Source: a virus
Taxonomy: Duplodnaviria > Caudoviricetes
IMG/VR virus record: IMGVR_UViG_3300032267_001530
Coordinates: 1-33,721 of that record
Direction: 5' to 3' (one strand)
DNA length: 33,721 bases
Positions 2,200 to 33,678 of the stretch are shown piece after piece (the first letter of the stretch is position 1; every line of letters starts with the position of its first letter). The position numbers and the translations under genes were made by a program. The notes below the pieces were generated by a model, which was not told the DNA's origin, made no database searches, and worked only from the letters and a program-made list of their open reading frames with translations.

Positions 2200-3998
2200 C
2201 TTGGTTTTATTGCAGTTCTAAAATTAACTTTGGGCAATGATCCTATTGCGGAAGCAGGTTTACGTAATGGTGTTTGAGGCACAATAGGTTTAGGTTCAGG
2301 AGGCTTAACTACAGGCTTAACTACAGGCTTAACTACAGGCTTAACTACAGGCTTAACTACAGGCTTAACTACAGGCTTAACTACAGGCTTAACTACAGGC
2401 TTTGGTGTAGGTGTTGCTAAGTTACTAACAGGCAATCCGTTAGTTGGTGCCGGTGCAGGTGTAGTTGAATTTATAATTGCAGGGATTGTTGGGGTGATTG
2501 GATTGTTACCAGCTAGTAAGCCAGACAAACCACCACCGGTTGTCGGTGTAGCTGGTATTTGTCCACCTTGAGTGGCGTTTTGCTGCGCGGCGAAAGCTGC
2601 GTAAGCTGCATTTTGATCCGGATTGCGAATCCATGTACCATTTGCGTCAGTCGTACCTGCCCAAGGATCTAATGCGGTGGTTCTTGGGCCGTCACCAAGT
2701 GATGCTTGGTATTCAGCCAATGTAGCAGGCATCGGTTTGTATGGGGGCGGTGTTGTTGGAACAGTTGGATTGTTACCAGCCAATAAACCGGACAAACCAC
2801 CAAAACTATTGTCAGATGGCATAGCTCCCGAGTTTGGACCAGAAGGGACCCATTGGCCTTGGGTTTCGCTCCAAACCGTTCCAGGGGGAGGCCCGTTACC
2901 GGGCTCAAATTTACTTAAATTTGGTGATGGTGTTGCAACAGGATCAACAGGTGACATAGAACCACCCATTGTCGGTGAACCAGGGTATGCGCCTATTGTT
3001 GGCCCTATTGATCCACTGCCGGGATACACATATGGAGCTGGATCACTTGGGTTAGCAGCACCTATTACTTGTCCAGTAAAACCGCCGGAATAAAAGTGTT
3101 GCACAGAACCACCATTTGCTAAATGTTTAACTTTTTTTTTGTTTGACATTAAGTGCATGGCAGCAGCGTGGGCTTTTGACCGAGGTTTAACCTGACCACC
3201 TTCTGCCATAGCTGGTTTGTTTTTAAGGCTGTCTAAATAAGAATTAAGCGCTGTTGCGCCCATGCCAACAACTGTACCGCCAACACGAGCTATTGGATGA
3301 GGTATTAGTGAAGCAGCAGAACCAAGAGCGCCAAGACCACCAATCAATGCTCCACCATAATCACCTGTTTGAAAACGGTTATAAGCATCTGCTCCTTGAA
3401 AACCAGCTCCTGCTCCAGCAATACCGCGCCCAATAACTGCGGGTACTGTACCGCCCAAACCAGCGGCTCCAGCGGCTTTTAAGGACTGTAATGTAGGTGA
3501 AGCTGCAACACGACCGGCAGGAGCTGCTTTACTGGCAGCTTCAAAACTTTGAGGGATGGCTCCGGGTGTGGGTCCTTTAGGCACAACTTCAGGTGCCGTT
3601 AACGGAGCCCCTACAGTTGGGTTCGGTGGAACACCAAGAGGGTATTTAGTTTGCATAGCCATACGGTTTGCTTGCGGCATATCTCGACCGCCAAAAAACT
3701 CACCGCTGTGCATTTGGCGTGTCCAATTTTCTACAGCACCAAATTTACCACGAACAAAATCAGAAGCATCTTTTGGATTCCAACCACTTTTAATAAGTTT
3801 TTGGGTTTCCATAAACGCTTCAGAAGACTTATTAATTGCAGGCCCTAAAGCTTCAGCAACTAATGCACCGCCAAGAGTGGGCATTAGTGGATTTATTTGT
3901 TTATCTTCAGCAACAGATTTTTGTGATGAAGTTTGTTCTTGTTCTAAACGACGACGAAACTCAAACTCTTCTTGTTCTTGAGGTGTAATGTCTGCCAT
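2187..3998 (-). CDS. Putative internal virion/ejection-type protein with a hydrophobic Gly/Ala segment and a Pro/Thr-rich low-complexity tail
   Basis: 603 aa and the last gene of the late operon, after the SLT protein. Contains a GGALIGGLGALGSAASLI membrane-like segment, MAEGG/LANGG motifs and (KPVV)8. Function is inferred from position. Confidence 0.5.
   Translation of the reverse strand: MADITPQEQEEFEFRRRLEQEQTSSQKSVAEDKQINPLMPTLGGALVAEALGPAINKSSEAFMETQKLIKSGWNPKDASDFVRGKFGAVENWTRQMHSGEFFGGRDMPQANRMAMQTKYPLGVPPNPTVGAPLTAPEVVPKGPTPGAIPQSFEAASKAAPAGRVAASPTLQSLKAAGAAGLGGTVPAVIGRGIAGAGAGFQGADAYNRFQTGDYGGALIGGLGALGSAASLIPHPIARVGGTVVGMGATALNSYLDSLKNKPAMAEGGQVKPRSKAHAAAMHLMSNKKKVKHLANGGSVQHFYSGGFTGQVIGAANPSDPAPYVYPGSGSIGPTIGAYPGSPTMGGSMSPVDPVATPSPNLSKFEPGNGPPPGTVWSETQGQWVPSGPNSGAMPSDNSFGGLSGLLAGNNPTVPTTPPPYKPMPATLAEYQASLGDGPRTTALDPWAGTTDANGTWIRNPDQNAAYAAFAAQQNATQGGQIPATPTTGGGLSGLLAGNNPITPTIPAIINSTTPAPAPTNGLPVSNLATPTPKPVVKPVVKPVVKPVVKPVVKPVVKPVVKPVVKPPEPKPIVPQTPLRKPASAIGSLPKVNFRTAIKPSYLR
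2301..2402. repeat. Perfect 12-bp tandem repeat (AGGCTTAACTAC) x8.5, encoding (KPVV)8
   Basis: Directly visible with no mismatches between units. Confidence 0.97.
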
Positions 3999-11916: not shown

Positions 11917-13188
11917 TTAGAACTGCCCACCGCTAATCAATTGAGCGTTTAAGGTTGCAGCAACCGTAACCAATGGTGTGGACGTATTAGAGTTATCTAT
12001 TTTAATAATGTCCGTTGAGTTTGCTGATAATCCTAAGATGCCAGTACTAACCAAATACATACCAGTGTGGGTATCACTGTTAAACGAATATGCTGGTAAC
12101 GAGGCTGTACCATCAGACGCGTAAAATGCGCCGGTAGTGGCAGAGGTTAGTGGATATAAATACTCACCATCACTAAGCACTGTAACAATTTGACCAGCAG
12201 ATAATATTAACGGTATCTGGGTACTGTTTTCGTTTTGGAAAGTGATGTTATAACCAGATTGCTCAGTGTTGTTAGCCAACACATAAATCTGGGTAATCGC
12301 TGGTAAAGTTACTGCTAAGTTCTGTGTACGAGTACCAGATTGCGCAATATAGGTTTGAATGATAGGGGCAAAGTTTACCAAACTAAACGTGTTAGTTGGA
12401 ATAGAGTCCACATCATATGTCGCTGCAGTAAACGTCAAAGCATTTGGGTTTGCCAAGCCAACAGTAATAAACCCGGTTTGGGCGGCATTTAAAAAGATAA
12501 AGCCTGAGTCACCAGGGTTGGTATTAATGGAAGTTTGGCCATTAATGGTGTTTGGTGATGTTGGGTTGATAGCCAGTGTGCCAGTACCGTTGTTTCTAAA
12601 ACCGATGTACCAGCCAGTTGATAATGACTGGATAGAAGGTAGTGTAAAGCTACCAGCGCCAGCGTTCCAAACAAACGTTGCAGCACGACTACCATCAGTA
12701 ATGTTAGGAGATACTGTTACGTTAACTGGGTTTTGGGTGGCGGCTAGTTGACCATTAACTGTGGTTAAACCAGCGCCAGCCAAAGTGGCGGCATCAGCAA
12801 ACGAGGTTCCAGCAGCAAACGTTACGTTTTGCCAAACGCCAGCAGCAGATGTATTATCAGTAAGATAAAAGTACTTACTAATACCCACAGGTACAGTAAC
12901 ACTTGCTCCGCCGGTAAAGTCTGTAATAATAAATTCATGCGCGCCCAGGTTGCGGAAAAGAATGTCCGCGCCCAGTGTTCCTTGATCAGCTTGCGGTAAA
13001 GCAATGGTGAGACCATCACTAGCAGCAACGCAATCAATAATACGGGCAGCAGGAGGCTGACTACCGTTGACAGTAGAAGGCCAGTAGAGAATTTGATCTG
13101 TACTAAATGGGAGAGCAAGATAAGATACATCCGTTGGGGTAACAACGGTGCCTGTAAAAGGTGATGTATAGACTGGTGTCGTAGACAT
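11917..13188 (-). CDS. Putative tail fibre/adaptor-linked structural protein
   Basis: 423 aa and Thr/Ser-rich. Has repeated beta modules (T.ALP....G....FRN.G), a DGTASLPAYSFNSDTHTGMY fibre motif, and ends in ISGGQF. Confidence 0.6.
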   Translation of the reverse strand: MSTTPVYTSPFTGTVVTPTDVSYLALPFSTDQILYWPSTVNGSQPPAARIIDCVAASDGLTIALPQADQGTLGADILFRNLGAHEFIITDFTGGASVTVPVGISKYFYLTDNTSAAGVWQNVTFAAGTSFADAATLAGAGLTTVNGQLAATQNPVNVTVSPNITDGSRAATFVWNAGAGSFTLPSIQSLSTGWYIGFRNNGTGTLAINPTSPNTINGQTSINTNPGDSGFIFLNAAQTGFITVGLANPNALTFTAATYDVDSIPTNTFSLVNFAPIIQTYIAQSGTRTQNLAVTLPAITQIYVLANNTEQSGYNITFQNENSTQIPLILSAGQIVTVLSDGEYLYPLTSATTGAFYASDGTASLPAYSFNSDTHTGMYLVSTGILGLSANSTDIIKIDNSNTSTPLVTVAATLNAQLISGGQF

Positions 13189-21165: not shown

Positions 21166-21612
21166 TTATTTCCTTAAATGTTCTATGACTTTCTGTGGTT
21201 CAACAAATCGATCGTTACTATGTTGCGTAGCTTCCCACCAGATAAACTGATTGGCAACTAAATGTGATCTATCTTTTAGTAAATTCGTGTTTTCGGGGTG
21301 TCCAAATATCAACGGATCAGACGGTCCCCATAATACTATTCCGCTCTTGCCTTCATCCCACGCAAGGTGTTGGAAAAAACTATCCACACCCACCCACGTG
21401 CGACATTCTTGTATCAATTCACGCAACCTTGGCAGTGACATATTTTTCACAAACATATCAACTAACTGCTCTTCACCCTCTACGCCAACTTGGATTACTT
21501 GTTCAAACTTCTGAACTTCGTTAACCACCTCTTTCCAATACTCGATTGGATAGTTCTTTGGGTTGAGGTTACCTGTCCTTAGTTTCTGTGCATACGGGGC
21601 GATGATAATCAT
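21166..21612 (-). CDS. Glycosyltransferase family 9 (heptosyltransferase-like) C-terminal domain
   Basis: Start re-called at ATG 21612 (MIIIAPY..., ATGA overlap). Motifs KNYPIEYW, VIQVG, GVDSFFQHLA and GIVLWGPS. Confidence 0.8.
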   Translation of the reverse strand: MIIIAPYAQKLRTGNLNPKNYPIEYWKEVVNEVQKFEQVIQVGVEGEEQLVDMFVKNMSLPRLRELIQECRTWVGVDSFFQHLAWDEGKSGIVLWGPSDPLIFGHPENTNLLKDRSHLVANQFIWWEATQHSNDRFVEPQKVIEHLRK

Positions 21613-22589
21613 AAGTACATCCCCAAAAACGCATCTTCTAAACTGCCAGTCCACTTGCGATGTGCCATCCACTTGTAGACGCTCCAGTTGTCAATGTCAC
21701 CAAACAACGCTCTGGCTTCTGCAATTGACTTGCCAGGAATAATGTCTGGGTAGCAAGTAAATACCAACGGGTCTTTTAATTTGGGCAATATGTGACTAAA
21801 CACAATGTGATCGCCCATACCGCAATTTAAAACCACTATCGTCTTATCACGACAAGCTAAGTAGTTTCTAAAAATCTGCTCGTCCTGCGCATACAACTCA
21901 GCTTTAGTCTCGCTACGAATGCCACCTTGCGGGTTCTTCATGTGCCATGTTGTTGCGTTTGGCACTGCTAAAACCTTATAACCTTTTTGATGCAAGCCGT
22001 ATGTAAACAGCGTTTCTTCCCGATGTGCTACTCGTGAAAGACCAGTATTAAAGTTGTGCACACCAGCACGGTATAAAAAAGTGCAGTGTAAATGTTCAAC
22101 TTCCCTAACCATTGGAATAGGGCTCCATTGGATATTGGGCTCACTATCAATGTGATCAATTTTACCAGTTGAGTTAACATTTTCAAATAGATTTGGCGGG
22201 GTTAAAACCGCTCCTCCAATTGCTCCAACGTCACTTAATGCATGTAAATACAAACTTCTTAGCACATTAGGCTCAGGGATTGCATCATCATCACAACGCC
22301 ACACCCATTCATAACCGTCGTTTACTGCCATGTCGTTGGCTTGTTGGTGGATGTGGTGCTGGCCTTTTTTGCCAGCGTAACGCCACTCCCATTTAATTGC
22401 CTTTAAATCTAACATCTGAAAAAAGTACGAATAAATCATCTCTTTTCGCATGTCTTGCGGTTCGTCATTATCATCAAAGATTACCAGCTTATCGACTGGT
22501 TTAGTCTGATTAATAATAGCGTTTAATACCAAGGGCAAGGTTGTATGGTAGCGCCCTCTTGTTGCTACCGAGCATAGCACCTTACTCAT
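21609..22589 (-). CDS. GT2/GT-A glycosyltransferase fused to a GT9-like N-terminal half
   Basis: VIFDDND, WRCDDDAIP (DxD) and REETLF; C-terminal VVLNCGMGDHIVF. Confidence 0.8.
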   Translation of the reverse strand: MSKVLCSVATRGRYHTTLPLVLNAIINQTKPVDKLVIFDDNDEPQDMRKEMIYSYFFQMLDLKAIKWEWRYAGKKGQHHIHQQANDMAVNDGYEWVWRCDDDAIPEPNVLRSLYLHALSDVGAIGGAVLTPPNLFENVNSTGKIDHIDSEPNIQWSPIPMVREVEHLHCTFLYRAGVHNFNTGLSRVAHREETLFTYGLHQKGYKVLAVPNATTWHMKNPQGGIRSETKAELYAQDEQIFRNYLACRDKTIVVLNCGMGDHIVFSHILPKLKDPLVFTCYPDIIPGKSIAEARALFGDIDNWSVYKWMAHRKWTGSLEDAFLGMYL

Positions 22590-23811
22590 TGTCCCACCTG
22601 CAAATCATCAAGTTGCTCAGGTTGTCGTTACTGACTGGCACCATCTCATGTGAAATGTTGCCGTTGTGGCTGATGTAGGTAAACTTAAAGCCAGGGAAAT
22701 GACTCTCGTTTAATCCATGCAACCGGTGGTGTTCACCCCAAAAGCCTTTTGGCTCGTTGTGTGGCACCGTAATCAACAAACGCCTGCAGTGCTGCTTTAA
22801 CTTCTCTACTACTTCTAAACCATTATCAAGGTGTTCAATGACTTCAAACGCCAAGATGGTGTCGTAATGCTCTAGCTCGTAGCTGTTAATATCTGCCCAG
22901 TTAAAGGTGCAATTCTCACCCCACTTCTGGTCACGCGCCACATCGACAATAATCGGGTCATAATCAAGTCCCAAATACTGAATACGTGGTGCAAAAAACT
23001 GTGTACCGTAACCGGTAGAGCAACCAATTTCTAATAGCTTGGTACCAAAAATATTACGTGCTGCCCATTCGTAACGCTGTGTCTCTCTAGGGAAAACCTC
23101 GTCGCCTTTGAGAAATACTGCTCGCTCGTAGTTGTTTGACAAGCGCCAGTAGTACCAATCTTTGTTGTACTTCTTAGCCAAACGCAATTCGTTTAGCAAA
23201 AACTTTTGTTTCCACTGTTGCACCAAGCTCTCATCGTGCATAGTGCCTTCTGCTGCGTGGTAGATTGGAAAGTCACCTTTGTAACCCACATCTACCAACT
23301 CAAACCCGGCGTCTTGTGCTTTTAAACAAAACTCAATGTCATCGCACCCGCCAGTGCCGTACTCTTCGTTGAGCATTCCAATCTTTTGAAATACTTTAGC
23401 GTCAATCATGGCACAGAAGAACACAATAAACTTGCGCTTTGTGATGTCTGAATTTTGTGTTAACACACCGCTAACATCACCCACATCCAAACGCTCCAAC
23501 CACTTATTCTGTGGTTGTTCTAAAAGCACTGTATCGTTGTTAAGCAATACAATCTTCTCACCCTTGCATACCCGAACGCCATTATTAACGGCCTTTGGGA
23601 AACCTAGCGCTTCATCGCTCCAAACCACTACCAGATTTGGCATGGTGGTTTGCAAATAACCTAAATAGGCTTTGGTGTTGTCAGTACATCCGTTTGCCGA
23701 TACAACCAACTCCACGTTGGTCATATCGGTGTACTTGATGATTGACTCAATACAAGGTTTTAAATACTTTTCACAATTGTTATATGTTGGTATAACGATA
23801 CTGTATTTCAT
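22582..23811 (-). CDS. GT2 glycosyltransferase fused to a class I SAM-dependent methyltransferase
   Basis: Start re-called at ATG 23811 (AAGGA RBS). GT2 motifs SIVIPTYN, NGCTD, LLNNDT and GCDDIEFC; MTase motifs LEIGCSTGYG and FEVIEHL. Confidence 0.9.
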   Translation of the reverse strand: MKYSIVIPTYNNCEKYLKPCIESIIKYTDMTNVELVVSANGCTDNTKAYLGYLQTTMPNLVVVWSDEALGFPKAVNNGVRVCKGEKIVLLNNDTVLLEQPQNKWLERLDVGDVSGVLTQNSDITKRKFIVFFCAMIDAKVFQKIGMLNEEYGTGGCDDIEFCLKAQDAGFELVDVGYKGDFPIYHAAEGTMHDESLVQQWKQKFLLNELRLAKKYNKDWYYWRLSNNYERAVFLKGDEVFPRETQRYEWAARNIFGTKLLEIGCSTGYGTQFFAPRIQYLGLDYDPIIVDVARDQKWGENCTFNWADINSYELEHYDTILAFEVIEHLDNGLEVVEKLKQHCRRLLITVPHNEPKGFWGEHHRLHGLNESHFPGFKFTYISHNGNISHEMVPVSNDNLSNLMICRWDNE

Positions 23812-23822
23812 GTTTTCCTTTA

Positions 23823-23852
23823 GAGGTTTATACAAACCTCCTAATTATAGCA
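23823..23852 (-). promoter_or_regulatory. Extended -10 sigma70-type promoter and overlapping palindrome upstream of the glycosyltransferase cassette
   Basis: The - strand reads TGCTATAAT at 23852-23844, a perfect TGnTATAAT. Inverted repeat GAGGTTT-atac-AAACCTC at 23823-23840. Confidence 0.65.
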
Positions 23853-23859
23853 CAACTAC

Positions 23860-26800
23860 TTAGAACGTACCGCCTTTGATACCGCTCGTAATTGCACCGT
23901 TGGTTGCGTTGTAAACTAATCCAGAGTTGGTGTATACCGACTGACTACCTGTCAATCCTGTTACCAATGTTGGGTAGGTTGTTGCTGCTGTGGTGTTGCT
24001 TACTGACACTGTGGTTGGAGCCACACCGCTGTAACCAGAGATACCTGACGCGCCAGAGAAGCCTGATACACCTGAGCCACTGTAGCCTGAGAAGCCTGAC
24101 AATCCAGAGCCACTGTAGCCAGAGAAGCCACTGTAGCCAGACAGACCAGAACCACTGTAACCGCTGTAGCCAGAGAAGCCTGAGATACCGCTGCCTGAGT
24201 AGCCAGAGAAGCCTGACAGACCAGAACCGCTGTAACCAGAGATACCTGATGCGCCGTTGGTGCCAGAGTAACCAGAGAAGCCTGATGTACCGCCTGTACC
24301 GTTTAGACCGCTGTAACCACTTGTACCACTGTAACCAGAGATACCAGATGCGCCAGAGAAGCCTGAGATACCTGAGCCGCTGTAACCACTAGTACCTGAG
24401 AAGCCACTGTAACCAGAGATGCCAGAACCACTATAGCCGCTGTAACCAGAGAAACCAGAGATACCTGAGCCACTGTAGCCTGAGAAGCCAGAGATACCTG
24501 AGCCACTGTAGCCGGAGAAGCCTGAGATACCAGATGCGCCGCTGTAACCAGAGATACCTGAATCGCCAGAGAAACCGCTGTAGCCAGAGATACCGCTGTA
24601 ACCGGAGATACCAGATGCGCCTGAGAAACCAGAGCGACCAGAGTAACCAGAGAAGCCTGAGATACCAGAGAATCCAGAATCACCTGAGAAACCACTGTAG
24701 CCAGAGATACCGGAGAAGCCTGAGATACCTGAGTCACCACTGTAACCGCTGTAACCAGAGATGCCAGAGCCGCTGTAACCAGAGAAGCCTGACAATCCAG
24801 AGCCACTGTAGCCTGAGAAGCCAGAGAAACCGCTTACACCAGAACCGCTGTAACCAGAAGTACCAGAGAAGCCGCTTACGCCAGATCCACTGTAACCAGA
24901 GAAGCCTGATAAGCCAGATCCACTGTAGCCGGAGAAGCCTGAGAAGCCAGAATCACCAGAGAAGCCTGAGATACCAGAATCACCAGAGAATCCAGAGTCA
25001 CCTGAGTAACCAGAGAAACCAGAGATACCAGACGCGCCACTGTAACCAGAGCGACCAGAGAATCCAGAGAAGCCAGACTCACCGGAGAAGCCGCTGTAAC
25101 CAGAGATACCAGAGTGTCCAGAGAAACCTGAGAAGCCAGAGTCACCTGAATGGCCGCTGTAACCAGAGATTCCAGACATGCCTGAGTAACCAGAGAAGCC
25201 TGAGATACCCGAACCACTGTAACCAGATTGACCGCTGTAACCAGAGATACCAGAACCACTATAGCCGCTGTAGCCAGAGAATCCACTGATACCAGATCCA
25301 CTGTAACCAGAGAAACCAGAAATACCAGATCCACTGTAACCAGAGAATCCAGAATCACCTGAATGGCCTGAAATACCAGAGTCACCAGAGAAACCAGAAA
25401 TACCTGAGAAACCACTGTAACCAGAGATTCCAGATGCACCTGAGAAGCCAGAGCGACCAGAGTAACCAGAGATACCAGATGCACCTGAGAAGCCAGATTC
25501 GCCAGAGAAACCACTGTAGCCAGATATACCACTGTCACCTGAGAAGCCAGAAATACCTGAGAAACCGCTGTAACCAGAAATACCAGAGTGTCCAGAATAG
25601 CCAGAGAAACCACTGATACCAGAGCCGCTGTAACCAGACTCACCGCTGTAACCAGAGATACCAGATCCACTATAGCCACTGTAGCCAGAGAAGCCGCTTA
25701 CACCAGAACCAGAATATCCGGAGAAACCTGACAGACCAGAACCTGAGTAACCAGAGAAACCAGACTCACCTGAGAAGCCAGAGAATCCAGAATCACCTGA
25801 GAAACCTGAGAAGCCACTGTAACCGCTGATACCAGATGCACCAGAGAAGCCAGAGCGACCACTGTATCCTGAAATACCTGATGCGCCAGAGAAACCAGAC
25901 TCACCAGAGAAGCCACTGTAGCCAGAGATGCCAGAGTCACCTGAGAAGCCAGAAATACCTGAGAAGCCACTGTAGCCAGAAGTACCTACTTCACCAGAGT
26001 AACCAGAGAAGCCAGAGATACCGGAGCCACTGTAACCAGATTCACCGCTGTAACCAGAGATACCAGAACCACTATAGCCGCTGTAGCCAGAGAAACCACT
26101 TACACCAGAGCCAGAGTAACCAGAGAAACCAGAGATACCAGAACCGCTGTAACCAGAGAATCCAGACTCACCTGAGAAGCCAGAGAAGCCAGAGTCACCA
26201 GAGAAGCCAGAGAATCCACTGTAACCAGAGATACCAGACGCGCCAGAGAAACCAGAACGACCGCTGTAACCAGAGATACCAGATGCGCCAGAGAAACCAG
26301 ACTCACCAGAGAAGCCACTGTAGCCAGAGATACCAGAATCACCAGAGAAACCAGAGATACCTGAGAAGCCACTGTAACCAGAAATACCTACTTCACCTGA
26401 ATAACCAGAGAAGCCTGAGATACCAGAGCCACTGTAACCAGATTCACCACTGTAACCACTGATACCAGAACCGCTGTAACCTGAATAACCAGAGAAACCG
26501 CTTACGCCAGAACCAGAGTAACCAGAGAAGCCTGATAGGCCTGAACCAGAATAACCAGAGAATCCAGATGTACCTGAGAAGCCAGAGATACCAGACGCGC
26601 CAGAGAAACCTGAGATACCTGAGAATCCACTGTAGCCAGAAATACCTGAGAAACCAGAGTAACCAGAAATACCGGAGAAGCCAGAGTAACCCGATAAACC
26701 ACCGGCACCTGGTAAACCATTTGGACCTTGTAGGTTAATCGTCCAAGGGTATGTTCCCATACCATTGTAACGAGTTACATTGAATGAGAATAATCCGGTT

Positions 26801-29800
26801 GTTGGGTTGTATGCTGTGACAATTACATCTGCAAAATTAGCAGCGTCGTAGGCAATAACACCGGTTTGACCAGCTGTCCAGCTCAATCCTGTGCCAACAA
26901 TAATGGCGCCAGAAACATCACCTAAAGCAAAGTCTGGATCAGTACTGGTAGTTAAATATTTATCACTAGCACCAGAAATACCAGAAGTACCAGAGTAGCC
27001 AGAGATACCAGAGAATCCTGATGCACCAGAGTAACCGGAGAAACCGGAGATACCTGAACCACTGTAACCAGATTCGCCGCTGTAACCACTTATGCCAGAT
27101 CCGCTGTAACCGCTGTAACCAGAGAAGCCTGATGTACCAATACCACTGTAACCAGAAAAACCTGACAGACCAGAACCTGAGTAACCAGAGAAACCAGACT
27201 CACCAGAAAAGCCACTGTAACCAGATTCACCAGAGAAGCCTGAGTCACCGCTATAACCAGAGATACCAGACGCTCCAGATTCACCGCTGTAGCCAGAGAA
27301 ACCAGATTGACCATCTGGGCCTACAATTTGACCAGCGCTAAACCAGGATGTGCCATTCCATACATACAAGTCGCCGTCGGCTGTAACAATGTATGCATCG
27401 TTTGGTTGATTGCCAATTAATGGCAAGTCACCTACGGTTGCAACAGTACCTTTGAGGTTAATTGAAGTACCTTGTGCACCGCTGTAACCAGAGTAGCCAG
27501 AGTAACCTGAAGCACCATCAATACCGCTGTAACCAGAAGCACCATCAATACCGCTGTAACCAGAGATACCGGAGAAGCCAGAGTCACCGCTGTAACCAGA
27601 GATGCCGCTGCCGCTGTAACCAGAATAACCTGAGAAGCCAGAGATACCAGAACCGCTGTAACCAGAGAAACCGCTTACGCCAGAGCCGCTGTAACCGGAG
27701 AAACCGCTGTAACCGCTGATACCAGATCCGCTGTAACCAGAGAAACCTGAAAAACCTGAAATACCAGAAGCACCGGATGCGCCAGAGTAGCCAGAGAAGC
27801 CAGAAATGCCTGAATCACCAGAAAAGCCACTGATACCAGAATCACCGCTGTAGCCAGAGATACCAGAATCACCGCTGTAGCCAGAGATACCAGAGTCGCC
27901 GCTGTAACCAGAGATACCAGAAAAACCGGAGATACCGGAGAAGCCGGAGATGCCAGAAGCACCAGAGAAGCCTGATATACCAGATGCACCTGAGAAACCG
28001 CTGTAGCCAGAGATACCAGAGCCGCTGTAGCCAGAGTAGCCAGAGAAACCAGAAACGCCAGAACCAGAGTAACCAGAGAAACCAGAGATGCCAGAACCTG
28101 AGTAACCAGATTCACCGCTGTAACCACTTATGCCAGAGCCACTGTAACCACTGTAGCCAGAGAAGCCTGATGTGCCACTGTAACCTGAGAAACCTGAAAT
28201 GCCTGAAAAGCCGCTGTAACCAGAGATACCAGAATGACCAGAGAAGCCAGAAATACCTGAGAATCCGCTGTAGCCAGAGATACCAGAGTCACCTGAAAAA
28301 CCGCTGATACCAGAGTCGCCACTGTAGCCAGAGATACCAGAATCACCAGAGAAACCAGAGAAGCCAGAAATACCAGAAGCTCCAGATTCACCTGAGAAGC
28401 CACTATAACCACTTACACCAGATCCGCTGTAACCGCTGTAGCCTGAGAAGCCAGAGATACCAGATCCACTGTAACCAGAGAAACCGCTAATACCAGATCC
28501 GCTATAGCCAGACTCACCGCTGTAACCACTGACACCCGATCCGCTGTAACCACTGTAGCCAGAGAAGCCTGAGATACCAGAGTCGCCAGAGAAGCCAGAA
28601 ATGCCTGAGAAGCCACTGTAACCAGAGATACCAGAATGGCCAGAGAAACCAGAAATACCAGAGAAACCGCTGTAGCCAGAGATACCAGAGTCACCAGAGA
28701 AACCACTAATGCCAGAATCACCACTGTAACCAGAGATACCAGAGTCGCCAGAGAAACCAGAGAAGCCAGAAATACCAGAGGCTCCAGATTCACCAGAGAA
28801 ACCACTGTAGCCAGAGATACCAGATCCACTGTAGCCAGAGTAGCCAGAGAAACCGCTGATACCAGAACCAGAATAGCCAGAGAAACCGCTAATACCAGAG
28901 CCGCTGTAACCAGATTCACCGCTGTAGCCGCTTACGCCAGATCCGCTGTAACCACTATAGCCTGAGAAGCCAGAGATGCCAGAGTCACCAGAGAATCCAG
29001 ATTCACCTGAGAAACCACTGTAACCAGAAATACCAGAGTGTCCAGAGAAACCTGAGATACCTGAGAATCCACTGTAGCCAGAAATACCTGAATCACCAGA
29101 GAAGCCTGAAATACCAGAGTCGCCACTGTAGCCAGAGATACCTGAATCGCCAGAGAAACCAGAGAAGCCTGAGATACCTGAATGACCAGAGAAACCAGAT
29201 TCACCAGAGAATCCACTGTAACCAGAGATACCAGAGCCGCTGTAGCCAGAATAACCGGAGAAGCCCGATACACCAGAGCCAGAGTAACCAGAGAAACCAG
29301 AGATACCGCTACCGCTGTAACCAGATTCGCCACTATAACCAGAGATACCAGATCCGCTGTAACCACTATAGCCAGAGAAGCCAGAGATACCGCTATCACC
29401 AGAGAAACCTGAGATACCAGAGTCGCCGCTGTAACCAGAAATACCTGAGTCACCAGAGAAACCAGAGATACCAGAAAAACCGCTGTATCCAGAAATGCCT
29501 GAATCGCCAGAGAAACCGGAAATACCGCTGTCACCAGAGAAGCCAGAAATACCAGAGAAGCCGGAGTCGCCAGAGAAGCCACTAAAACCGCTTATGCCAG
29601 AGTCGCCTGAAAATCCACTGTAACCAGAAATACCAGAGCCGCTGTAACCAGAGTAACCTGAGAAGCCAGAGATGCCAGAACCGCTGTAACCAGAGTAACC
29701 AGAGTCACCGCTTCCAGAATAGCCTGAGAAGCCACTATAACCGCTGTCACCGCTTCCGCTATAACCAGAATAGCCTGAGAAGCCAGAAAGTCCAGAATCG

Positions 29801-32800
29801 CCTGAGAAGCCGCTAATGCCGCTAAAACCACTATAACCAGAGATACCAGAATGGCCAGAGAAACCAGAAATGCCTGAGAAGCCGCTGTAACCAGAAATAC
29901 CGCTGTCACCAGAAAAACCAGAGATACCAGAATCACCACTGTAACCAGAAATACCCGAGTCACCTGAGAAACCACTGTATCCAGAGAATCCAGAGCGACC
30001 AGAGAAACCAGAAATACCAGAATCGCCAGAGAAACCACTGTAACCAGAAATACCAGATCCGCTGTAGCCAGAGTAACCAGAGAAACCTGAAGTTCCTACT
30101 TCACCACTGTAACCAGAAAAACCTGATAGGCCAGATCCACTGTAACCAGAGAATCCAGACTCACCGCTGTAACCAGAATCGCCTGAGAAACCAGAGATAC
30201 CAGAATCGCCACTGTAACCAGAAATACCTGAGTCACCACTGTAACCAGAAATACCTGAGTCGCCTGAGAAACCAGAAATACCAGAGTCACCAGAGTAACC
30301 GCTGTAACCAGAATCACCAGATCCACTGTAACCAGAATAACCAGAGAAGCCAGATGTGCCTATGCCGCTGTAGCCAGAGAATCCTGATAAACCACTACCA
30401 GAATAGCCAGAGAAGCCGCTGTAACCAGAATCACCGCTGCCACTGTAACCAGAATAGCCAGAGAATCCAGAAGTTCCTACTTCACCGCTGTAACCAGAAA
30501 TACCTGAGTCGCCAGAAAAACCTGAAATGCCAGAATCGCCGCTGTAGCCAGAGATACCAGATTCACCACTGTAACCACTGATGCCAGAGTAACCAGAAAT
30601 ACCTGAGTAGCCAGAGAAACCGCTGGCACCAGAAAAGCCTGATTCACCACTGTAACCACTGTAGCCAGAGTCACCAGATCCGCTGTAACCAGAGATACCA
30701 GATTCACCGCTGTAACCAGATATACCGGAGTCGCCAGAGAAACCTGAGTCACCACTGTAACCGCTAGTACCAGAATAGCCAGAGAAGCCGCTGTAACCTG
30801 ATGTACCAGAGCCACCGCCTTGACCGTCTTGACCGCTAAAACCGCTGTAACCAGAGAATCCAGATAAACCGTTTTGACCGCTGTAACCAGACAAGCCATC
30901 TTGTCCGCTGTAGCCAGAAGCGCCGTCTTGTCCAGAATAACCAGACTCACCACTTAAACCATCTTGACCGCTGTAACCAGAGAAACCTGATGCACCATTT
31001 TGACCAGAGAAACCTGAAATACCAGACGCTCCGTTTTGACCAGAGAAACCTGAAATACCAGAAGCACCATCTTGTCCAGAATAACCTGAAATACCAGACG
31101 CACCATCTTGACCGCTGTAACCAGATAGGCCATCTTGTCCAGAGTAACCAGAGAAGCCTGATTCGCCGTTTTGTCCAGAGTAACCAGATTCACCAGATGC
31201 TCCGTCGATACCGCTGTAACCAGAAAAACCACTTAAACCATCTTGACCAGAATAGCCTGATTCGCCAGACAAGCCATCTTGTCCAGAGTAACCAGAGAAT
31301 CCTGATTCACCATTTTGTCCTGAGAATCCAGAAGCGCCATCTTGTCCTGAGAAACCAGAAATACCAGATGCGCCATCTTGACCTGAAAAGCCAGAGATAC
31401 CAGATGCACCATCTTGACCGCTATAACCAGATTGACCATCTTGACCGCTGTAACCAGACTCGCCAGAGATTCCGTCTTGTCCTGAGTAACCAGATAAACC
31501 AGACGCGCCATCTTGACCTGAGAAACCACTTAAACCATCTTGACCACTGTAGCCAGAGAAGCCTGATTCACCATTTTGACCAGAGAAGCCTGAAATACCA
31601 GAGGCACCATCTTGACCGCTATAGCCAGACTCACCAGACAAACCATTTTGTCCGCTGTAACCAGAGAAGCCGCTAATACCAGAGTGACCAGAGATACCAG
31701 AGCCACTGTAACCAGAGATACCAGAAAAGCCTGAAATACCACTGTCACCAGAGAAACCAGAAATACCAGAGTCGCCAGAGAATCCGCTATAACCAGAGAT
31801 ACCAGAATCGCCAGAGAAACCTGAGAAGCCGCTGTAACCACTAGCGCCATCAGGACCGACAATTGGACCTACGTTGGTCCATGCTGCGCCAGTCCATACA
31901 TACAAGTCACCATTAGATTGAACAATGTATGCGTCGTTTAAATTGCCGGTAGGAGGCAAATCACCTGGAGTTGCAACGGTACCAATAATGTTAATTGATG
32001 TACCTTGCGCGCCACTGATACCAGAAAAACCGCTGTAGCCAGAAATACCAGAGTCGCCAGAAAAACCGCTGATACCAGAGTCGCCAGAAAAACCAGAAAT
32101 ACCAGAGTCACCACTGTAACCAGAGATACCTGAGTCACCTGAGAAACCACTGTAACCAGAGATACCGCTGTCACCAGAGAATCCTGAGAAGCCAGATAAA
32201 CCATCTTGACCTGAATAACCTGATTCACCAGACAAACCATTTTGTCCAGAGAAACCTGAAATACCAGACGCGCCGTCTTGACCGCTGTAACCAGAGTCAC
32301 CTGACAAGCCATCTTGTCCACTGTAACCACTTAAACCATCTTGACCTGAAAAACCAGAGAAACCTGACAAACCATTTTGTCCGCTATAACCTGATTCACC
32401 AGATAAACCATCTTGTCCGCTATAACCTGATTCACCGTTTTGTCCAGAGAAACCAGAAATACCAGAAGCGCCATCTTGACCAGAAAAGCCTGAGATACCA
32501 GATGCGCCATCTTGACCTGAGAAACCAGATGCGCCATCTTGACCGCTGTAACCAGACTGACCGCTTAAACCATCTTGACCGCTGTAACCTGATTCACCAG
32601 ATAAACCATCTTGTCCAGAGTAACCAGACAATCCTGAAACGCCATCAATACCGCTGTAACCAGAAAAACCAGACAAGCCATCTTGTCCGCTGTAACCAGA
32701 TTGACCACTTAAACCATCTTGACCGCTGTAACCTGATTCACCGTTTTGTCCGGAGAAACCAGAAATACCAGATGCGCCATCTTGTCCTGAAAAACCAGAG

Positions 32801-33678
32801 ATACCAGATGCTCCATCTTGACCACTGTAACCAGAGATACCAGAGGCACCATCTTGACCAGAGTAACCAGATTGACCACTTAAACCATCTTGACCGCTGT
32901 AACCTGACTCACCAGAAATACCATTTTGTCCAGAATAACCTGATGTACCATCTTGACCGCTGTAACCAGACAAGCCATCTTGTCCAGAATAGCCAGAGAA
33001 GCCTGACTCACCATTTTGTCCAGATTCACCACTGTATCCAGAATAACCAGAAGCAGAAGCTGCACCAGGTGCGCCGCTATAACCAGAAAAACCTGAGAAA
33101 CCAGAGTCACCAGATATGCCATCTTGACCGCTGTAACCAGAGTCGCCTGAAACGCCATCTTGACCAGAATAGCCAGAAAAACCTGATTGACCGTCTTGGC
33201 CACTGTAGCCTGATTGGCCATCTTGTCCAGAATAACCAGATTCACCGCTGTATCCAGAGTAACCCGATGCAGAAGCTTGACCATCTTGTCCAGAGTAGCC
33301 AGAAAAACCTGAAAAACCAGATGCGCCGTCTTGACCACTGTAACCAGAGTCACCAGATGCACCATCTTGACCAGAATAGCCAGAGAAACCTGAGTATCCA
33401 GAAACGCCAGACGTGCCACTACCGCCACCTGTTGGTGGTTGTAAAGATAAATTGCCAGCACCATCGGTGGTCATTACATAACCAGATGTGCCGTCAGTTG
33501 TTGGGTACACTAACCCAGTAATTGTAATTGCTGTTCCCGCTGTTAATACAGCGTTAACTATATTGTTTGGTGTTGCTTTGGTAGTCGTCGTACCATTGTC
33601 TGACACAAGAGGCAATACATCATTATCCGGTGCAACTGTCGTTACCGGAGGCAATTGTGTTATTTTTATATCTGCCAT
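23860..33678 (-). CDS. Giant (Ser-Gly-X)n repeat fibre protein, 3272 aa
   Basis: Uninterrupted ORF with phage-fibre-type N-terminal motifs (MADIKITQLP; YPTTDGTSGYVMTTDGAGNLS), three embedded globular domains and a C-terminal GIKGGTF. Synonymous variation among repeats indicates protein-level selection. Confidence 0.9.
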   Translation of the reverse strand: MADIKITQLPPVTTVAPDNDVLPLVSDNGTTTTKATPNNIVNAVLTAGTAITITGLVYPTTDGTSGYVMTTDGAGNLSLQPPTGGGSGTSGVSGYSGFSGYSGQDGASGDSGYSGQDGASGFSGFSGYSGQDGQASASGYSGYSGESGYSGQDGQSGYSGQDGQSGFSGYSGQDGVSGDSGYSGQDGISGDSGFSGFSGYSGAPGAASASGYSGYSGESGQNGESGFSGYSGQDGLSGYSGQDGTSGYSGQNGISGESGYSGQDGLSGQSGYSGQDGASGISGYSGQDGASGISGFSGQDGASGISGFSGQNGESGYSGQDGLSGQSGYSGQDGLSGFSGYSGIDGVSGLSGYSGQDGLSGESGYSGQDGLSGQSGYSGQDGASGFSGQDGASGISGFSGQDGASGISGFSGQNGESGYSGQDGLSGESGYSGQNGLSGFSGFSGQDGLSGYSGQDGLSGDSGYSGQDGASGISGFSGQNGLSGESGYSGQDGLSGFSGFSGDSGISGYSGFSGDSGISGYSGDSGISGFSGDSGISGFSGDSGISGYSGFSGISGAQGTSINIIGTVATPGDLPPTGNLNDAYIVQSNGDLYVWTGAAWTNVGPIVGPDGASGYSGFSGFSGDSGISGYSGFSGDSGISGFSGDSGISGFSGISGYSGSGISGHSGISGFSGYSGQNGLSGESGYSGQDGASGISGFSGQNGESGFSGYSGQDGLSGFSGQDGASGLSGYSGQDGISGESGYSGQDGQSGYSGQDGASGISGFSGQDGASGISGFSGQDGASGFSGQNGESGFSGYSGQDGLSGESGYSGQDGLSGFSGYSGIDGASGESGYSGQNGESGFSGYSGQDGLSGYSGQDGASGISGYSGQDGASGISGFSGQNGASGISGFSGQNGASGFSGYSGQDGLSGESGYSGQDGASGYSGQDGLSGYSGQNGLSGFSGYSGFSGQDGQGGGSGTSGYSGFSGYSGTSGYSGDSGFSGDSGISGYSGESGISGYSGSGDSGYSGYSGESGFSGASGFSGYSGISGYSGISGYSGESGISGYSGDSGISGFSGDSGISGYSGEVGTSGFSGYSGYSGSGDSGYSGFSGYSGSGLSGFSGYSGIGTSGFSGYSGYSGSGDSGYSGYSGDSGISGFSGDSGISGYSGDSGISGYSGDSGISGFSGDSGYSGESGFSGYSGSGLSGFSGYSGEVGTSGFSGYSGYSGSGISGYSGFSGDSGISGFSGRSGFSGYSGFSGDSGISGYSGDSGISGFSGDSGISGYSGFSGISGFSGHSGISGYSGFSGISGFSGDSGLSGFSGYSGYSGSGDSGYSGFSGYSGSGDSGYSGYSGSGISGFSGYSGYSGSGISGYSGFSGDSGISGFSGFSGDSGFSGISGFSGDSGISGFSGDSGISGYSGFSGISGFSGDSGISGYSGDSGISGFSGDSGISGFSGYSGYSGSGISGYSGESGYSGSGISGFSGYSGSGVSGFSGYSGYSGSGISGYSGFSGESGFSGHSGISGFSGFSGDSGISGYSGDSGISGFSGDSGISGYSGFSGISGFSGHSGISGYSGFSGESGFSGDSGISGFSGYSGYSGSGVSGYSGESGYSGSGISGFSGYSGSGISGFSGYSGYSGSGISGYSGFSGESGASGISGFSGFSGDSGISGYSGDSGISGFSGDSGISGYSGFSGISGFSGHSGISGYSGFSGISGFSGDSGISGFSGYSGYSGSGVSGYSGESGYSGSGISGFSGYSGSGISGFSGYSGYSGSGVSGYSGFSGESGASGISGFSGFSGDSGISGYSGDSGISGFSGDSGISGYSGFSGISGFSGHSGISGYSGFSGISGFSGYSGTSGFSGYSGYSGSGISGYSGESGYSGSGISGFSGYSGSGVSGFSGYSGYSGSGISGYSGFSGASGISGFSGASGISGFSGISGFSGISGYSGDSGISGYSGDSGISGYSGDSGISGFSGDSGISGFSGYSGASGASGISGFSGFSGYSGSGISGYSGFSGYSGSGVSGFSGYSGSGISGFSGYSGYSGSGISGYSGDSGFSGISGYSGIDGASGYSGIDGASGYSGYSGYSGAQGTSINLKGTVATVGDLPLIGNQPNDAYIVTADGDLYVWNGTSWFSAGQIVGPDGQSGFSGYSGESGASGISGYSGDSGFSGESGYSGFSGESGFSGYSGSGLSGFSGYSGIGTSGFSGYSGYSGSGISGYSGESGYSGSGISGFSGYSGASGFSGISGYSGTSGISGASDKYLTTSTDPDFALGDVSGAIIVGTGLSWTAGQTGVIAYDAANFADVIVTAYNPTTGLFSFNVTRYNGMGTYPWTINLQGPNGLPGAGGLSGYSGFSGISGYSGFSGISGYSGFSGISGFSGASGISGFSGTSGFSGYSGSGLSGFSGYSGSGVSGFSGYSGYSGSGISGYSGESGYSGSGISGFSGYSGEVGISGYSGFSGISGFSGDSGISGYSGFSGESGFSGASGISGYSGRSGFSGASGISGYSGFSGFSGDSGFSGFSGESGFSGYSGSGISGFSGYSGSGVSGFSGYSGYSGSGISGYSGESGYSGSGISGFSGYSGEVGTSGYSGFSGISGFSGDSGISGYSGFSGESGFSGASGISGYSGRSGFSGASGISGYSGFSGFSGDSGFSGFSGESGFSGYSGSGLSGFSGYSGSGVSGFSGYSGYSGSGISGYSGESGYSGSGISGFSGYSGHSGISGYSGFSGISGFSGDSGISGYSGFSGESGFSGASGISGYSGRSGFSGASGISGYSGFSGISGFSGDSGISGHSGDSGFSGYSGSGISGFSGYSGSGISGFSGYSGYSGSGISGYSGQSGYSGSGISGFSGYSGMSGISGYSGHSGDSGFSGFSGHSGISGYSGFSGESGFSGFSGRSGYSGASGISGFSGYSGDSGFSGDSGISGFSGDSGFSGFSGYSGSGLSGFSGYSGSGVSGFSGTSGYSGSGVSGFSGFSGYSGSGLSGFSGYSGSGISGYSGYSGDSGISGFSGISGYSGFSGDSGFSGISGFSGYSGRSGFSGASGISGYSGISGYSGFSGDSGISGYSGASGISGFSGYSGSGISGFSGYSGSGISGFSGYSGYSGSGISGYSGFSGTSGYSGSGISGFSGASGISGYSGTSGYSGLNGTGGTSGFSGYSGTNGASGISGYSGSGLSGFSGYSGSGISGFSGYSGYSGSGLSGYSGFSGYSGSGLSGFSGYSGSGVSGFSGASGISGYSGVAPTTVSVSNTTAATTYPTLVTGLTGSQSVYTNSGLVYNATNGAITSGIKGGTF
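24025..33420 (-). repeat. Degenerate 9-bp tandem repeat array (TCN/AGY-GGN-NNN) encoding SGX, with a 402-nt higher-order period in two blocks
   Basis: Visible throughout. Marker His codons at 29038/28636/28234 and Arg codons at 26257/25855/25453/25051 are each exactly 402 nt apart. Confidence 0.95.

Follow-up and report, generated by a model that had tools for sequence, protein, structure and literature searches.

The locus described here, from the IMG/VR record IMGVR_UViG_3300032267_001530, places a giant collagen-like protein with a serine in almost every repeat next to a cassette of glycosyltransferase genes, and we predict from the genes that the cassette enzymes probably O-glycosylate the serines of this fibre. 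What we observe is a distinctive sequence anatomy, a set of enzyme folds and motifs, and a tight co-inheritance of repeat and cassette; because the two are jointly present or jointly absent in close relatives, the phage likely sugar-coats its own fibre.

Organisation of the locus

The window, that is the whole 33.7-kb fragment analysed, reaches only 43 bp beyond the upstream end of the giant gene, and the genes of interest all lie on the minus strand in the order giant repeat gene, GT2-methyltransferase, GT2-GT9N, GT9C and 958-aa fibre gene (Table 1). The original prediction of a 3272-aa protein with serine at about every third residue is borne out by a composition of 948 Ser (29.0%), 1049 Gly (32.1%) and 931 SG dipeptides, these being followed mostly by Y, F or I. 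The predicted succession of three enzyme genes and a tail-fibre gene also stands, resting on Pfam matches and, for the GT9N piece, on a motif and on gene fusions.

Table 1. Features of the repeat-cassette locus (window coordinates)
Feature	Position	Strand	Observation
Giant Gly-X-Ser collagen-like protein, 3272 aa	23860..33678	-	about 2964 repeat residues with 932 Ser; 984 bits to Pfam Collagen, a model that scores any Gly-X-Y run
N-terminal domain, aa 1-84	33427..33678	-	fibre-slot gene family of related podophages, with or without Ser repeats
Knob domain 1, aa 562-607, small beta domain	31858..31995	-	PHROG tail fibre, 3e-14
Knob domain 2, aa 2073-2119	27322..27462	-	PHROG tail fibre, 8e-14
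Third non-repeat domain, aa 2239-2317	26728..26964	-	no significant Pfam or PHROG match
C-terminal domain, aa 3221-3272, terminal GGTF	23863..24018	-	GGTF ending common to many slot proteins
TG-n-TATAAT extended -10-like element with 8-bp hairpin or palindrome, before cassette	23822..23852	-	single occurrence in window
GT2 (GT-A) fused to class I SAM methyltransferase, optional cassette part	22582..23811	-	PF00535 1.5e-17; PF08242 8.8e-11; start by alignment, ATG 23811
Core GT2 (GT-A fold) with C-terminal GT9 N-piece	21609..22589	-	GT2 match 1.2e-05; invariant DD and DDD; G-x-G-D-H
GT9 C-terminal half, 148 aa	21166..21612	-	PF01075 1.1e-09; start by alignment, ATG 21612, overlapping the preceding stop codon (ATGA)
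Tail fibre or spike with S74 chaperone, 958 aa	18286..21162	-	Ser-collagen absent from window copy

The cassette does lie inside the structural module, as had been claimed, but a late operon does not fully account for it: a conserved -10-like element with a hairpin lies in front of the cassette, and this promoter-like element recurs in 45 distinct contexts. A generic promoter scan returned 21 sites against 23.8 expected, and the cassette element is absent from its list.

A collagen-like fibre almost without proline

Within the 2964-residue repeat region glycines are spaced by three residues in 931 intervals and by two in 71, and such long runs with Gly at every third position are those of collagen-like proteins (PF01391). 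The proline-rich X or Y positions of collagen are lacking, with 5 Pro in the entire repeat region; Gly-Pro-X triplets do sit at the domain junctions, and repeat-free orthologues carry a classical GPT collagen in the corresponding place. Small domains like knob 1 break up the collagen runs of phage tail fibres and are present in 165 phage records. Knob 1 is modelled by AF2 at a pLDDT of about 90, and its Foldseek matches are collagen-repeat and tail-fibre proteins; knob matches to villin and gelsolin, from a sequence search of solved structures, were judged spurious. The domains common to fibre proteins and the position in the structural module mark the giant protein as a likely tail or head fibre. 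Its N-terminal domain, which has no Pfam match and found unnamed clusters only in an Atlas search, is likely the virion anchor. The same Atlas search listed Mtd_N at 0.88, which is a lead at most.

An alternative accepts that virion proteins are glycosylated but replaces the triple helix of the repeat by a polyglycine-II bundle, a mesh of kinked beta-sheets or a disordered brush of glycans. The near absence of proline, the many aromatic X residues, the 71 register breaks and an AF2 monomer model without confident structure in the repeats (pLDDT 25-29) are all compatible with this, but the strict glycine periodicity, the Gly-Pro-X junctions, the knobs shared with collagen-repeat fibres and the GPT collagen of the repeat-free orthologues make it distinctly unlikely. 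Taking a rise of 0.286 nm per residue, the 2964 residues would span at most about 0.85 micrometre when stretched out in full. That length, which far exceeds a podophage virion, would suit a protein that is no virion part and serves, inside the cell or after release, as a scaffold (decoy, matrix or condensate) modified by the cassette; yet the protein is encoded in a structural slot whose typical N- and C-termini it retains, and elsewhere the repeats are fused to tail-fibre N-termini, so that we regard such a role as very improbable.

Giant size, a feature of the original prediction, proved dispensable, as repeat-bearing orthologues range upward from 385 aa. Other assemblies contain relatives of 3008 aa and 2460 aa and an open frame of 3229 aa. 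An assembly artefact was considered for the giant gene and rejected, given these long relatives, the lack of any exact DNA repeat of at least 100 bp, and a contig depth that stays even, at 14-26, across all 30 bins in one run that is possibly the source sample and that held no single spanning record.

The cassette enzymes

The core GT2 is predicted to adopt a GT-A fold (pLDDT 91), which fold searches confirm at that level only: its neighbours are peptide GalNAc transferases (Z 18.6), tied with lipid and polysaccharide enzymes (Z 17-18.5), and the acceptor is not singled out by the modelled fold. Its sequence profile matched no solved structure. DxD-type motifs accompany the GT-A fold, the methyltransferase-fused first GT2 having NND in the DxD place, and the catalytic motifs are invariant across the aligned cassette enzymes. 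For this first GT2 there is a weak match (4e-06) to a GtrB-like O-antigen conversion PHROG, and GalT1 is a distant sequence match.

GT9C carries the C-terminal donor-binding domain of the GT9 family and resembles residues 180-295 of the heptosyltransferase WaaC (E 1.6e-4), its sole solved match. The GT9N tail is only about 80 aa long and matches nothing in Pfam or PHROG; we assign it tentatively by its invariant G-x-G-D-H motif, the G-D of which recalls WaaC, and by its fusion in front of GT9C in two relatives (L424 and L633). Unlike WaaC, this GT9-like enzyme would be split over two genes, with its short putative N-piece fused to a GT2. No transmembrane segment was found in the enzymes (19-residue hydropathy peaks at 1.5, compared with 2.0 in the holin), no TPR was matched in the window proteins, the cassette has no significant similarity to a phage GT2-TPR, and no GT4 or Sec family occurs among the 21 window proteins.

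The original prediction envisaged a cassette of three enzymes. Comparison of sequences retains the GT2-GT9 core as its constant part and reduces the other GT2 and the methyltransferase to optional additions. In a GT2 tree made by a quick method from 90 of 116 sequences, with 31 rows unlabelled, the podovirus label requires 11 changes and the siphovirus label 8, of which strong branches force 5 and 3, and this weakly suggests exchange between phage types.

Co-inheritance of repeat and cassette

Whether such repeats and GT2, GT9 and methyltransferase genes co-occur had been posed as a check, and they do so in both directions and specifically for serine repeats. A Ser-repeat ORF is present at 107 of 111 cassette loci with at least 1.5 kb upstream, these being drawn from 147 loci without de-duplication. 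Conversely, the cassette accompanies the repeat on 24 of the 32 distinct contigs that continue for 4 kb or more downstream of it, and in 21 of 40 further whole records, including all six that are at least 90% complete; GT9C is absent from the other 8 contigs and 19 records, the latter being 11-74% complete. In one podophage group 44 of 80 loci are informative, with 17 having both elements, 27 neither and none discordant. Both trees of this group need only 3 changes, and its capsid tree has no strongly supported branch; podophage co-inheritance thus rests on few events, and linkage between neighbours can mimic function.

The 958-aa fibre gene provides a further comparison. In many cassette-bearing relatives its orthologous N-terminus is fused to Ser-collagen, and the repeat occurs in this second fibre gene in 40 of 66 cassette-bearing cases against 0 of 21 cassette-free ones. 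Beside Gly-X-Thr repeats the cassette core was found at none of 80 loci; among long Thr loci, an uncontrolled proportion of 9 of 39 have other glycosyltransferase families, three being GT2 plus TPR like SgtA. Podo-, sipho- and myovirus-type contexts all show the pairing of serine repeat and cassette, the repeat and cassette sometimes lying more than 10 kb apart, and some large phages have other glycosyltransferases near the repeat. A scan of 30 stretches from a genome collection placed long repeats with glycosyltransferases on phage-like contigs within bins (L400/401, L415, L424), and we therefore infer no host or cellular system.

These distributions bear on whether the cassette might instead modify host LPS or another surface glycan, in superinfection exclusion or in masking receptors on debris, and travel with the fibre as a host-range block. 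GT9 is known chiefly for its part in LPS core synthesis, and GT9, GT2 and methyltransferase are together typical of LPS and O-antigen pathways; the matches to WaaC and GtrB point the same way, and the cassette's own promoter-like element would fit early, host-directed work equally well. PMC7029224 proposes this reading for pelagimyophage glycosyltransferases. Nevertheless, we consider it unlikely, as it does not predict the dependence on serine repeats: the 27 relatives with a repeat-free slot gene lack the cassette, as do all the Thr-repeat loci, and repeats enter the second fibre gene only where the cassette is present. Moreover, the core is 56-77% identical in most aligned members across phage types, and the enzymes have no membrane segments. 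Serotype-converting Gtr cassettes, which belong to temperate phages, combine a membrane flippase with a transferase. Neither feature is apparent here, given the hydropathy values and the result for the cultured siphophage P19250A (KX815270), which infects a Methylophilaceae host and carries the module as gp23 (repeat protein) and gp24-26 (cassette), and whose complete genome yielded no integrase or base-modifying enzyme detectable by Pfam among the 52 of 58 proteins scanned.

Phage glycosyltransferases that hypermodify DNA have a partner enzyme making a hydroxymethyl base. Protection of phage DNA against restriction is the role usually proposed for phage glycosyltransferases (PMC10202952, PMC12619734), but that scan of P19250A revealed no hydroxymethylating or oxidising partner; the window itself is a fragment. 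The P19250A non-structural ORFs without assignment are all of 145 aa or less, and the cassette tracks the fibre in location and co-variation. We hold DNA glycosylation to be extremely improbable, and fibre glycosylation remains our preferred reading.

Relation to known systems

The streptococcal serine-rich adhesins, which the original prediction cited among its precedents, are a less apt comparison than collagen-like spore proteins. Fap1, GspB and PsrP have SxSx dipeptides, a signal peptide, an LPxTG anchor, an accessory Sec system (SecA2/Y2) and GtfA/B. They share with the phage protein its giant size, serine richness and neighbouring glycosyltransferases, and GalT1, the distant match of the first GT2, belongs with this comparison; in contrast, the phage protein has a triplet repeat and a GGTF end, and SxSx, signal peptide, LPxTG, accessory Sec and GtfA/B were not seen. 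The Gly-X-Ser collagen register and the tail-fibre knobs make BclA3 and SgtA the closer model. In Clostridioides difficile, collagen peptides of BclA3 are glycosylated by SgtA on Ser as well as Thr (PMC7157674), and this system and Bacillus BclA (PMC8968730) share with the phage locus a collagen-like filament, a hydroxy-amino acid at Y and an adjacent GT-A gene. The BclA3 and BclA glycans are O-linked and capped, a chemistry also predicted for the phage. The repeats differ, being Gly-aromatic-Ser rather than Gly-Pro-Thr, as does the context of phage rather than spore; SgtA is a GT-A plus TPR, whereas the phage cassette is without TPR and includes a methyltransferase and a GT9 in two pieces.

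There are also viral and animal precedents. Mycobacteriophage glycosyltransferases are reported to act on virion proteins (Freeman 2023, cited in PMC12619734), their targets being capsid and tail-tube C-termini rather than a collagen-like fibre with some 930 candidate sites. Mimivirus encodes collagenous Gly-X-Y proteins as well as L230, which glycosylates them (PMC9614988); there, however, the linkage is through hydroxylysine in a eukaryotic host, while the giant phage protein contains only 5 Lys and the window yielded no lysyl hydroxylase. In Riftia cuticle collagen, triple-helix stability is attributed to glycosylated Thr in place of hydroxyproline (Mann 1996, cited in PMC6953826), although this is an animal protein modified on Thr by host enzymes, and for the phage serines a stabilising role is proposed by analogy.

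A model for fibre glycosylation

In proposing how the fibre is made, we suggest that a short, sometimes methylated glycan would be built on its serines by two GT-A domains, a GT9-like enzyme in two pieces and a methyltransferase. The reactions would take place in the cytoplasm and draw on nucleotide-sugars of the host. The constant GT2-GT9 core would form the Ser linkage and add a second sugar, and the optional GT2, GT17 and methyltransferase domains would extend or cap the glycan. Three chains would then come together in a kinked triple helix, with the knobs as nucleation points and the N-terminal domain as attachment to the virion. The likely benefit of the glycan is that a chain rich in aromatic residues and free of proline would stay soluble and folded, much as glycosylated Thr is proposed to act in the vent-worm collagen; any shielding or adhesion would be secondary.

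Our literature search found no published account of the repeat-cassette pairing, though supplements and subscription journals might mention one, and no paper containing the string SGYSGYSG. With an estimated 1000 or so IMG/VR stretches bearing the repeat pattern and 2416 protein clusters matching the core GT2, the module is common among aquatic phages and still calls for an explanation, the glycosyltransferases of these phages being generally assigned a role on DNA or LPS; the cultured carrier P19250A makes the question directly testable. More speculatively, and with less than even odds, aquatic phages may possess a modular protein O-glycosylation in which each kind of repeat goes with its own enzyme family (Gly-X-Ser to the GT2/split-GT9 core, Gly-X-Thr to GT2-TPR or GT4), and in which Ser-linked sugars replace proline or hydroxyproline as stabiliser of the collagen helix, giving a small phage a sugar-coated filament of up to about 0.85 micrometre. 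If fibre glycosylation is correct, a widespread kind of virion glycosylation would come to light, together with a collagen built on Ser without proline and with new peptide O-glycosyltransferases, a split GT9 among them.

Results

The serine-rich giant gene followed by glycosyltransferase and methyltransferase genes, as originally described, was confirmed in the sequence. The window covers part (33.7 kb) of the genome of a podovirus-type phage, whose nozzle-like protein is ~39% identical to counterparts in Caulobacter phages RW and GB2A. Across the 2964 repeat residues of the giant protein, which include 932 Ser and 5 Pro, Gly spacing is 3 in 931 intervals and 2 in 71, and Gly-X-Ser is the best description of the repeat. 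Four short domains break up or terminate it; two are copies of one knob, which matches tail-fibre PHROGs and is also found in collagen-repeat fibres of many phages. That the protein is a non-virion scaffold seems very improbable. Structure prediction modelled the knob confidently and the adjoining repeats not; a non-collagen structure subject to the same chemistry is rather unlikely. The gene is real, since its exact DNA repeats are all <100 bp, long relatives exist (3008 aa and 2460 aa) and read depth is even in 30/30 bins (one run, which may be the source sample). Endings of the GGTF/GGQF type often lie 5' of a gene that encodes the conserved N-terminus of fibres, which points to a docking motif.

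Features of the window and of compared loci (L-numbers)
Feature	Locus	Position	Strand
DNA polymerase A	window		+
Giant gene	window	23860-33678	-
Giant protein C-terminus, GGTF	window	23863-23874	
TG-n-TATAAT + 8-bp hairpin, single copy	window	23822-23852	-
First cassette gene: GT2 + class I methyltransferase	window		-
Second cassette gene: GT2 with 80-aa tail	window		-
Third cassette gene: C-half of GT9	window		-
958-aa fibre, holin, lysozyme	window		-
SU10-type adaptor, nozzle-like protein, internal virion proteins	window		-
Putative internal virion protein ending in a (KPVV)n run and a Pro-rich tail; matches no family	window	2187-3998	-
423-aa structural protein C-terminus, GGQF	window	11920-11931	
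P19250A_0023 (gp23)	L426	21390-24995	
GT2+TPR, SgtA-like build and size, just 3' of phage Gly-X-Thr collagen gene	L432	2375-3451	
Same	L494	7800-8861	
Same	L503	11675-12634	
GT4 or GT25 at Gly-X-Thr loci	L439, L477, L485, L486		
Open frame >4200 codons, 878 Gly-X-Thr triplets, truncated by locus end	L497	1-12843	
Gly-X-Gln and mixed Ser/Thr/Gln collagen repeats adjoining Ser-collagen genes (T4-like phages)	L389	15817-19998	
Same	L392	3-13630	
Same	L385	9460-10491	
T4-like phage with several Ser-collagen genes, GT9C absent, possible alternative cassette	L383	14363-19433	
Ser-repeat genes and GT9C both split into overlapping pieces (one 187-kb record)	L634, L276	L634: 5052-9231	

Alignments of 20-21 relatives show no variation in the acidic motifs of the cassette enzymes. 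The second protein gives a GT-A model (pLDDT 91) whose structural neighbours, peptide, lipid and polysaccharide transferases, are tied, and the fold therefore gives no pointer to the acceptor. Its tail matches no family; an invariant G-x-G-D-H motif, and fusion of the tail immediately N-terminal to the GT9 C-half in two loci (L424, L633), support one split GT9-like enzyme. The complete five-domain set is present in 79 of 115 tallied loci; 12 lack the first GT2, 12 this methyltransferase type, 8 both, and 4 either the GT9 C-half alone or both of its pieces, absences that are inflated by contig ends. The GT2-GT9 core lies directly 3' of the repeat gene in L154, L170, L189 and L201, and larger phages add GT2, GT17 and FkbM-type domains. 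From these domain contents, GT2 and GT9 are the core, with extension and methylation variable.

The co-occurrence check put forward in the original prediction found repeat and cassette together, counted from either partner. Starting from the enzymes, 111 of 147 loci (a redundant set) extended 1.5 kb or more upstream, and 107 of these had an ORF with at least 10 SG[YFIW]. A DNA pattern search for the repeat, of which IMG/VR holds an estimated 1000 or so stretches, gave 154 loci (80 with flanks); of the 32 distinct contigs that continue for 4 kb or more downstream, 24 had the core. GT9C was found in 21 of 40 further whole repeat records, including 6/6 of those at least 90% complete, the 19 without it being 11-74% complete.

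Many clade relatives carry in the slot of the giant gene a repeat-free fibre with a few Gly-Pro-Thr triplets, the next fibre gene lying immediately behind. Among 80 loci retrieved via the common N-terminus, 44 spanned the slot gene completely, with 4 kb beyond it: 17 had repeat and cassette, 27 neither, and none was discordant (12 and 15 after duplicate removal). Lowering the cut to 3 kb brought in one discordant locus, on a contig that stops short. Because the trees require only 3 changes, independence is overstated by the Fisher p of 6e-8. In a second fibre family, a test less linkage-bound than that of the slot gene, the repeat occurred in 40 of 66 distinct proteins with the cassette and 0 of 21 without it.

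As a specificity control, 80 Gly-X-Thr loci were examined, 52 of them with 4 kb of downstream sequence; the core was present in none. Other glycosyltransferases were among the next genes in 9 of 39 long Thr loci, a raw count without a background rate, and three of the nine have the GT2-TPR build described for SgtA. In the L383 phage, a pair of PF11397 (GlcNAc transferase) genes and a gene for a carbamoyltransferase lie ~20 kb away, possibly an alternative cassette. The split genes of the 187-kb record could come from frameshifts introduced in sequencing, or both partners may be decaying.

Podophage and siphophage contexts show the pairing, as do T4-like or jumbo ones. Among 50,697 GenBank phage records, the core matched only the cultured Methylophilaceae siphophage P19250A (KX815270; 71% and 56% identity). 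Its gp23, a 1201-aa knob-bearing Gly-X-Ser collagen-like protein, is annotated as a tail length tape-measure protein, and gp24-26 behind it (methyltransferase, GT2-GT9N, GT9C) form a cassette unannotated as such. In 52 of its 58 proteins, Pfam gave no hit to an integrase or to an enzyme that modifies bases; modification of DNA by the cassette is the least probable reading of all.

In a subset of relatives, the element between giant gene and cassette, extended -10-like with a hairpin or palindrome, is conserved ahead of the cassette. Of 45 distinct copies preceding a GT start, 43 have complementary bases at the variable stem position (25 C-G, 18 T-A) and 32 a -10-like hexamer, compared with 3 of 140 loose matches at other places; these counts are of sequences, not events. 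The element is a candidate promoter with an RNA leader, or operator, and the conserved hexamer and covarying stem suggest that the cassette may be transcribed on its own. This fits production of the enzymes ahead of their substrate; an early role directed at the host also fits. Modification of host LPS, for which the element is the strongest new point, is nevertheless unlikely, and we prefer glycosylation of the repeat.

Discussion

The observed pairing is real. In a search of openly accessible papers, we found no publication on a Gly-X-Ser repeat with this cassette. Virion glycosylation is known in mycobacteriophages (as cited in PMC12619734), as is collagen glycosylation in mimivirus (PMC9614988). 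The system is not of the streptococcal adhesin type that had been cited as one precedent. It may by analogy work like BclA3/SgtA, the Clostridioides difficile spore collagen-like protein and its glycosyltransferase, but does not belong with it (PMC7157674), differing in its cassette without TPR, its Ser repeats and its phage context.

Anatomy, folds and co-inheritance are established; acceptor, sugar, order, trimer and location we infer. Probably, the cassette enzymes would O-glycosylate Y-position Ser of the repeat in the cytoplasm, drawing on nucleotide-sugars of the host, and the modified chains would then join as a long, kinked trimer carried by the virion. For the primary role we favour folding and solubility: the repeat is seemingly tolerated only with the enzymes present, and glycosylated Thr reportedly stabilises a vent-worm collagen (cited in PMC6953826).
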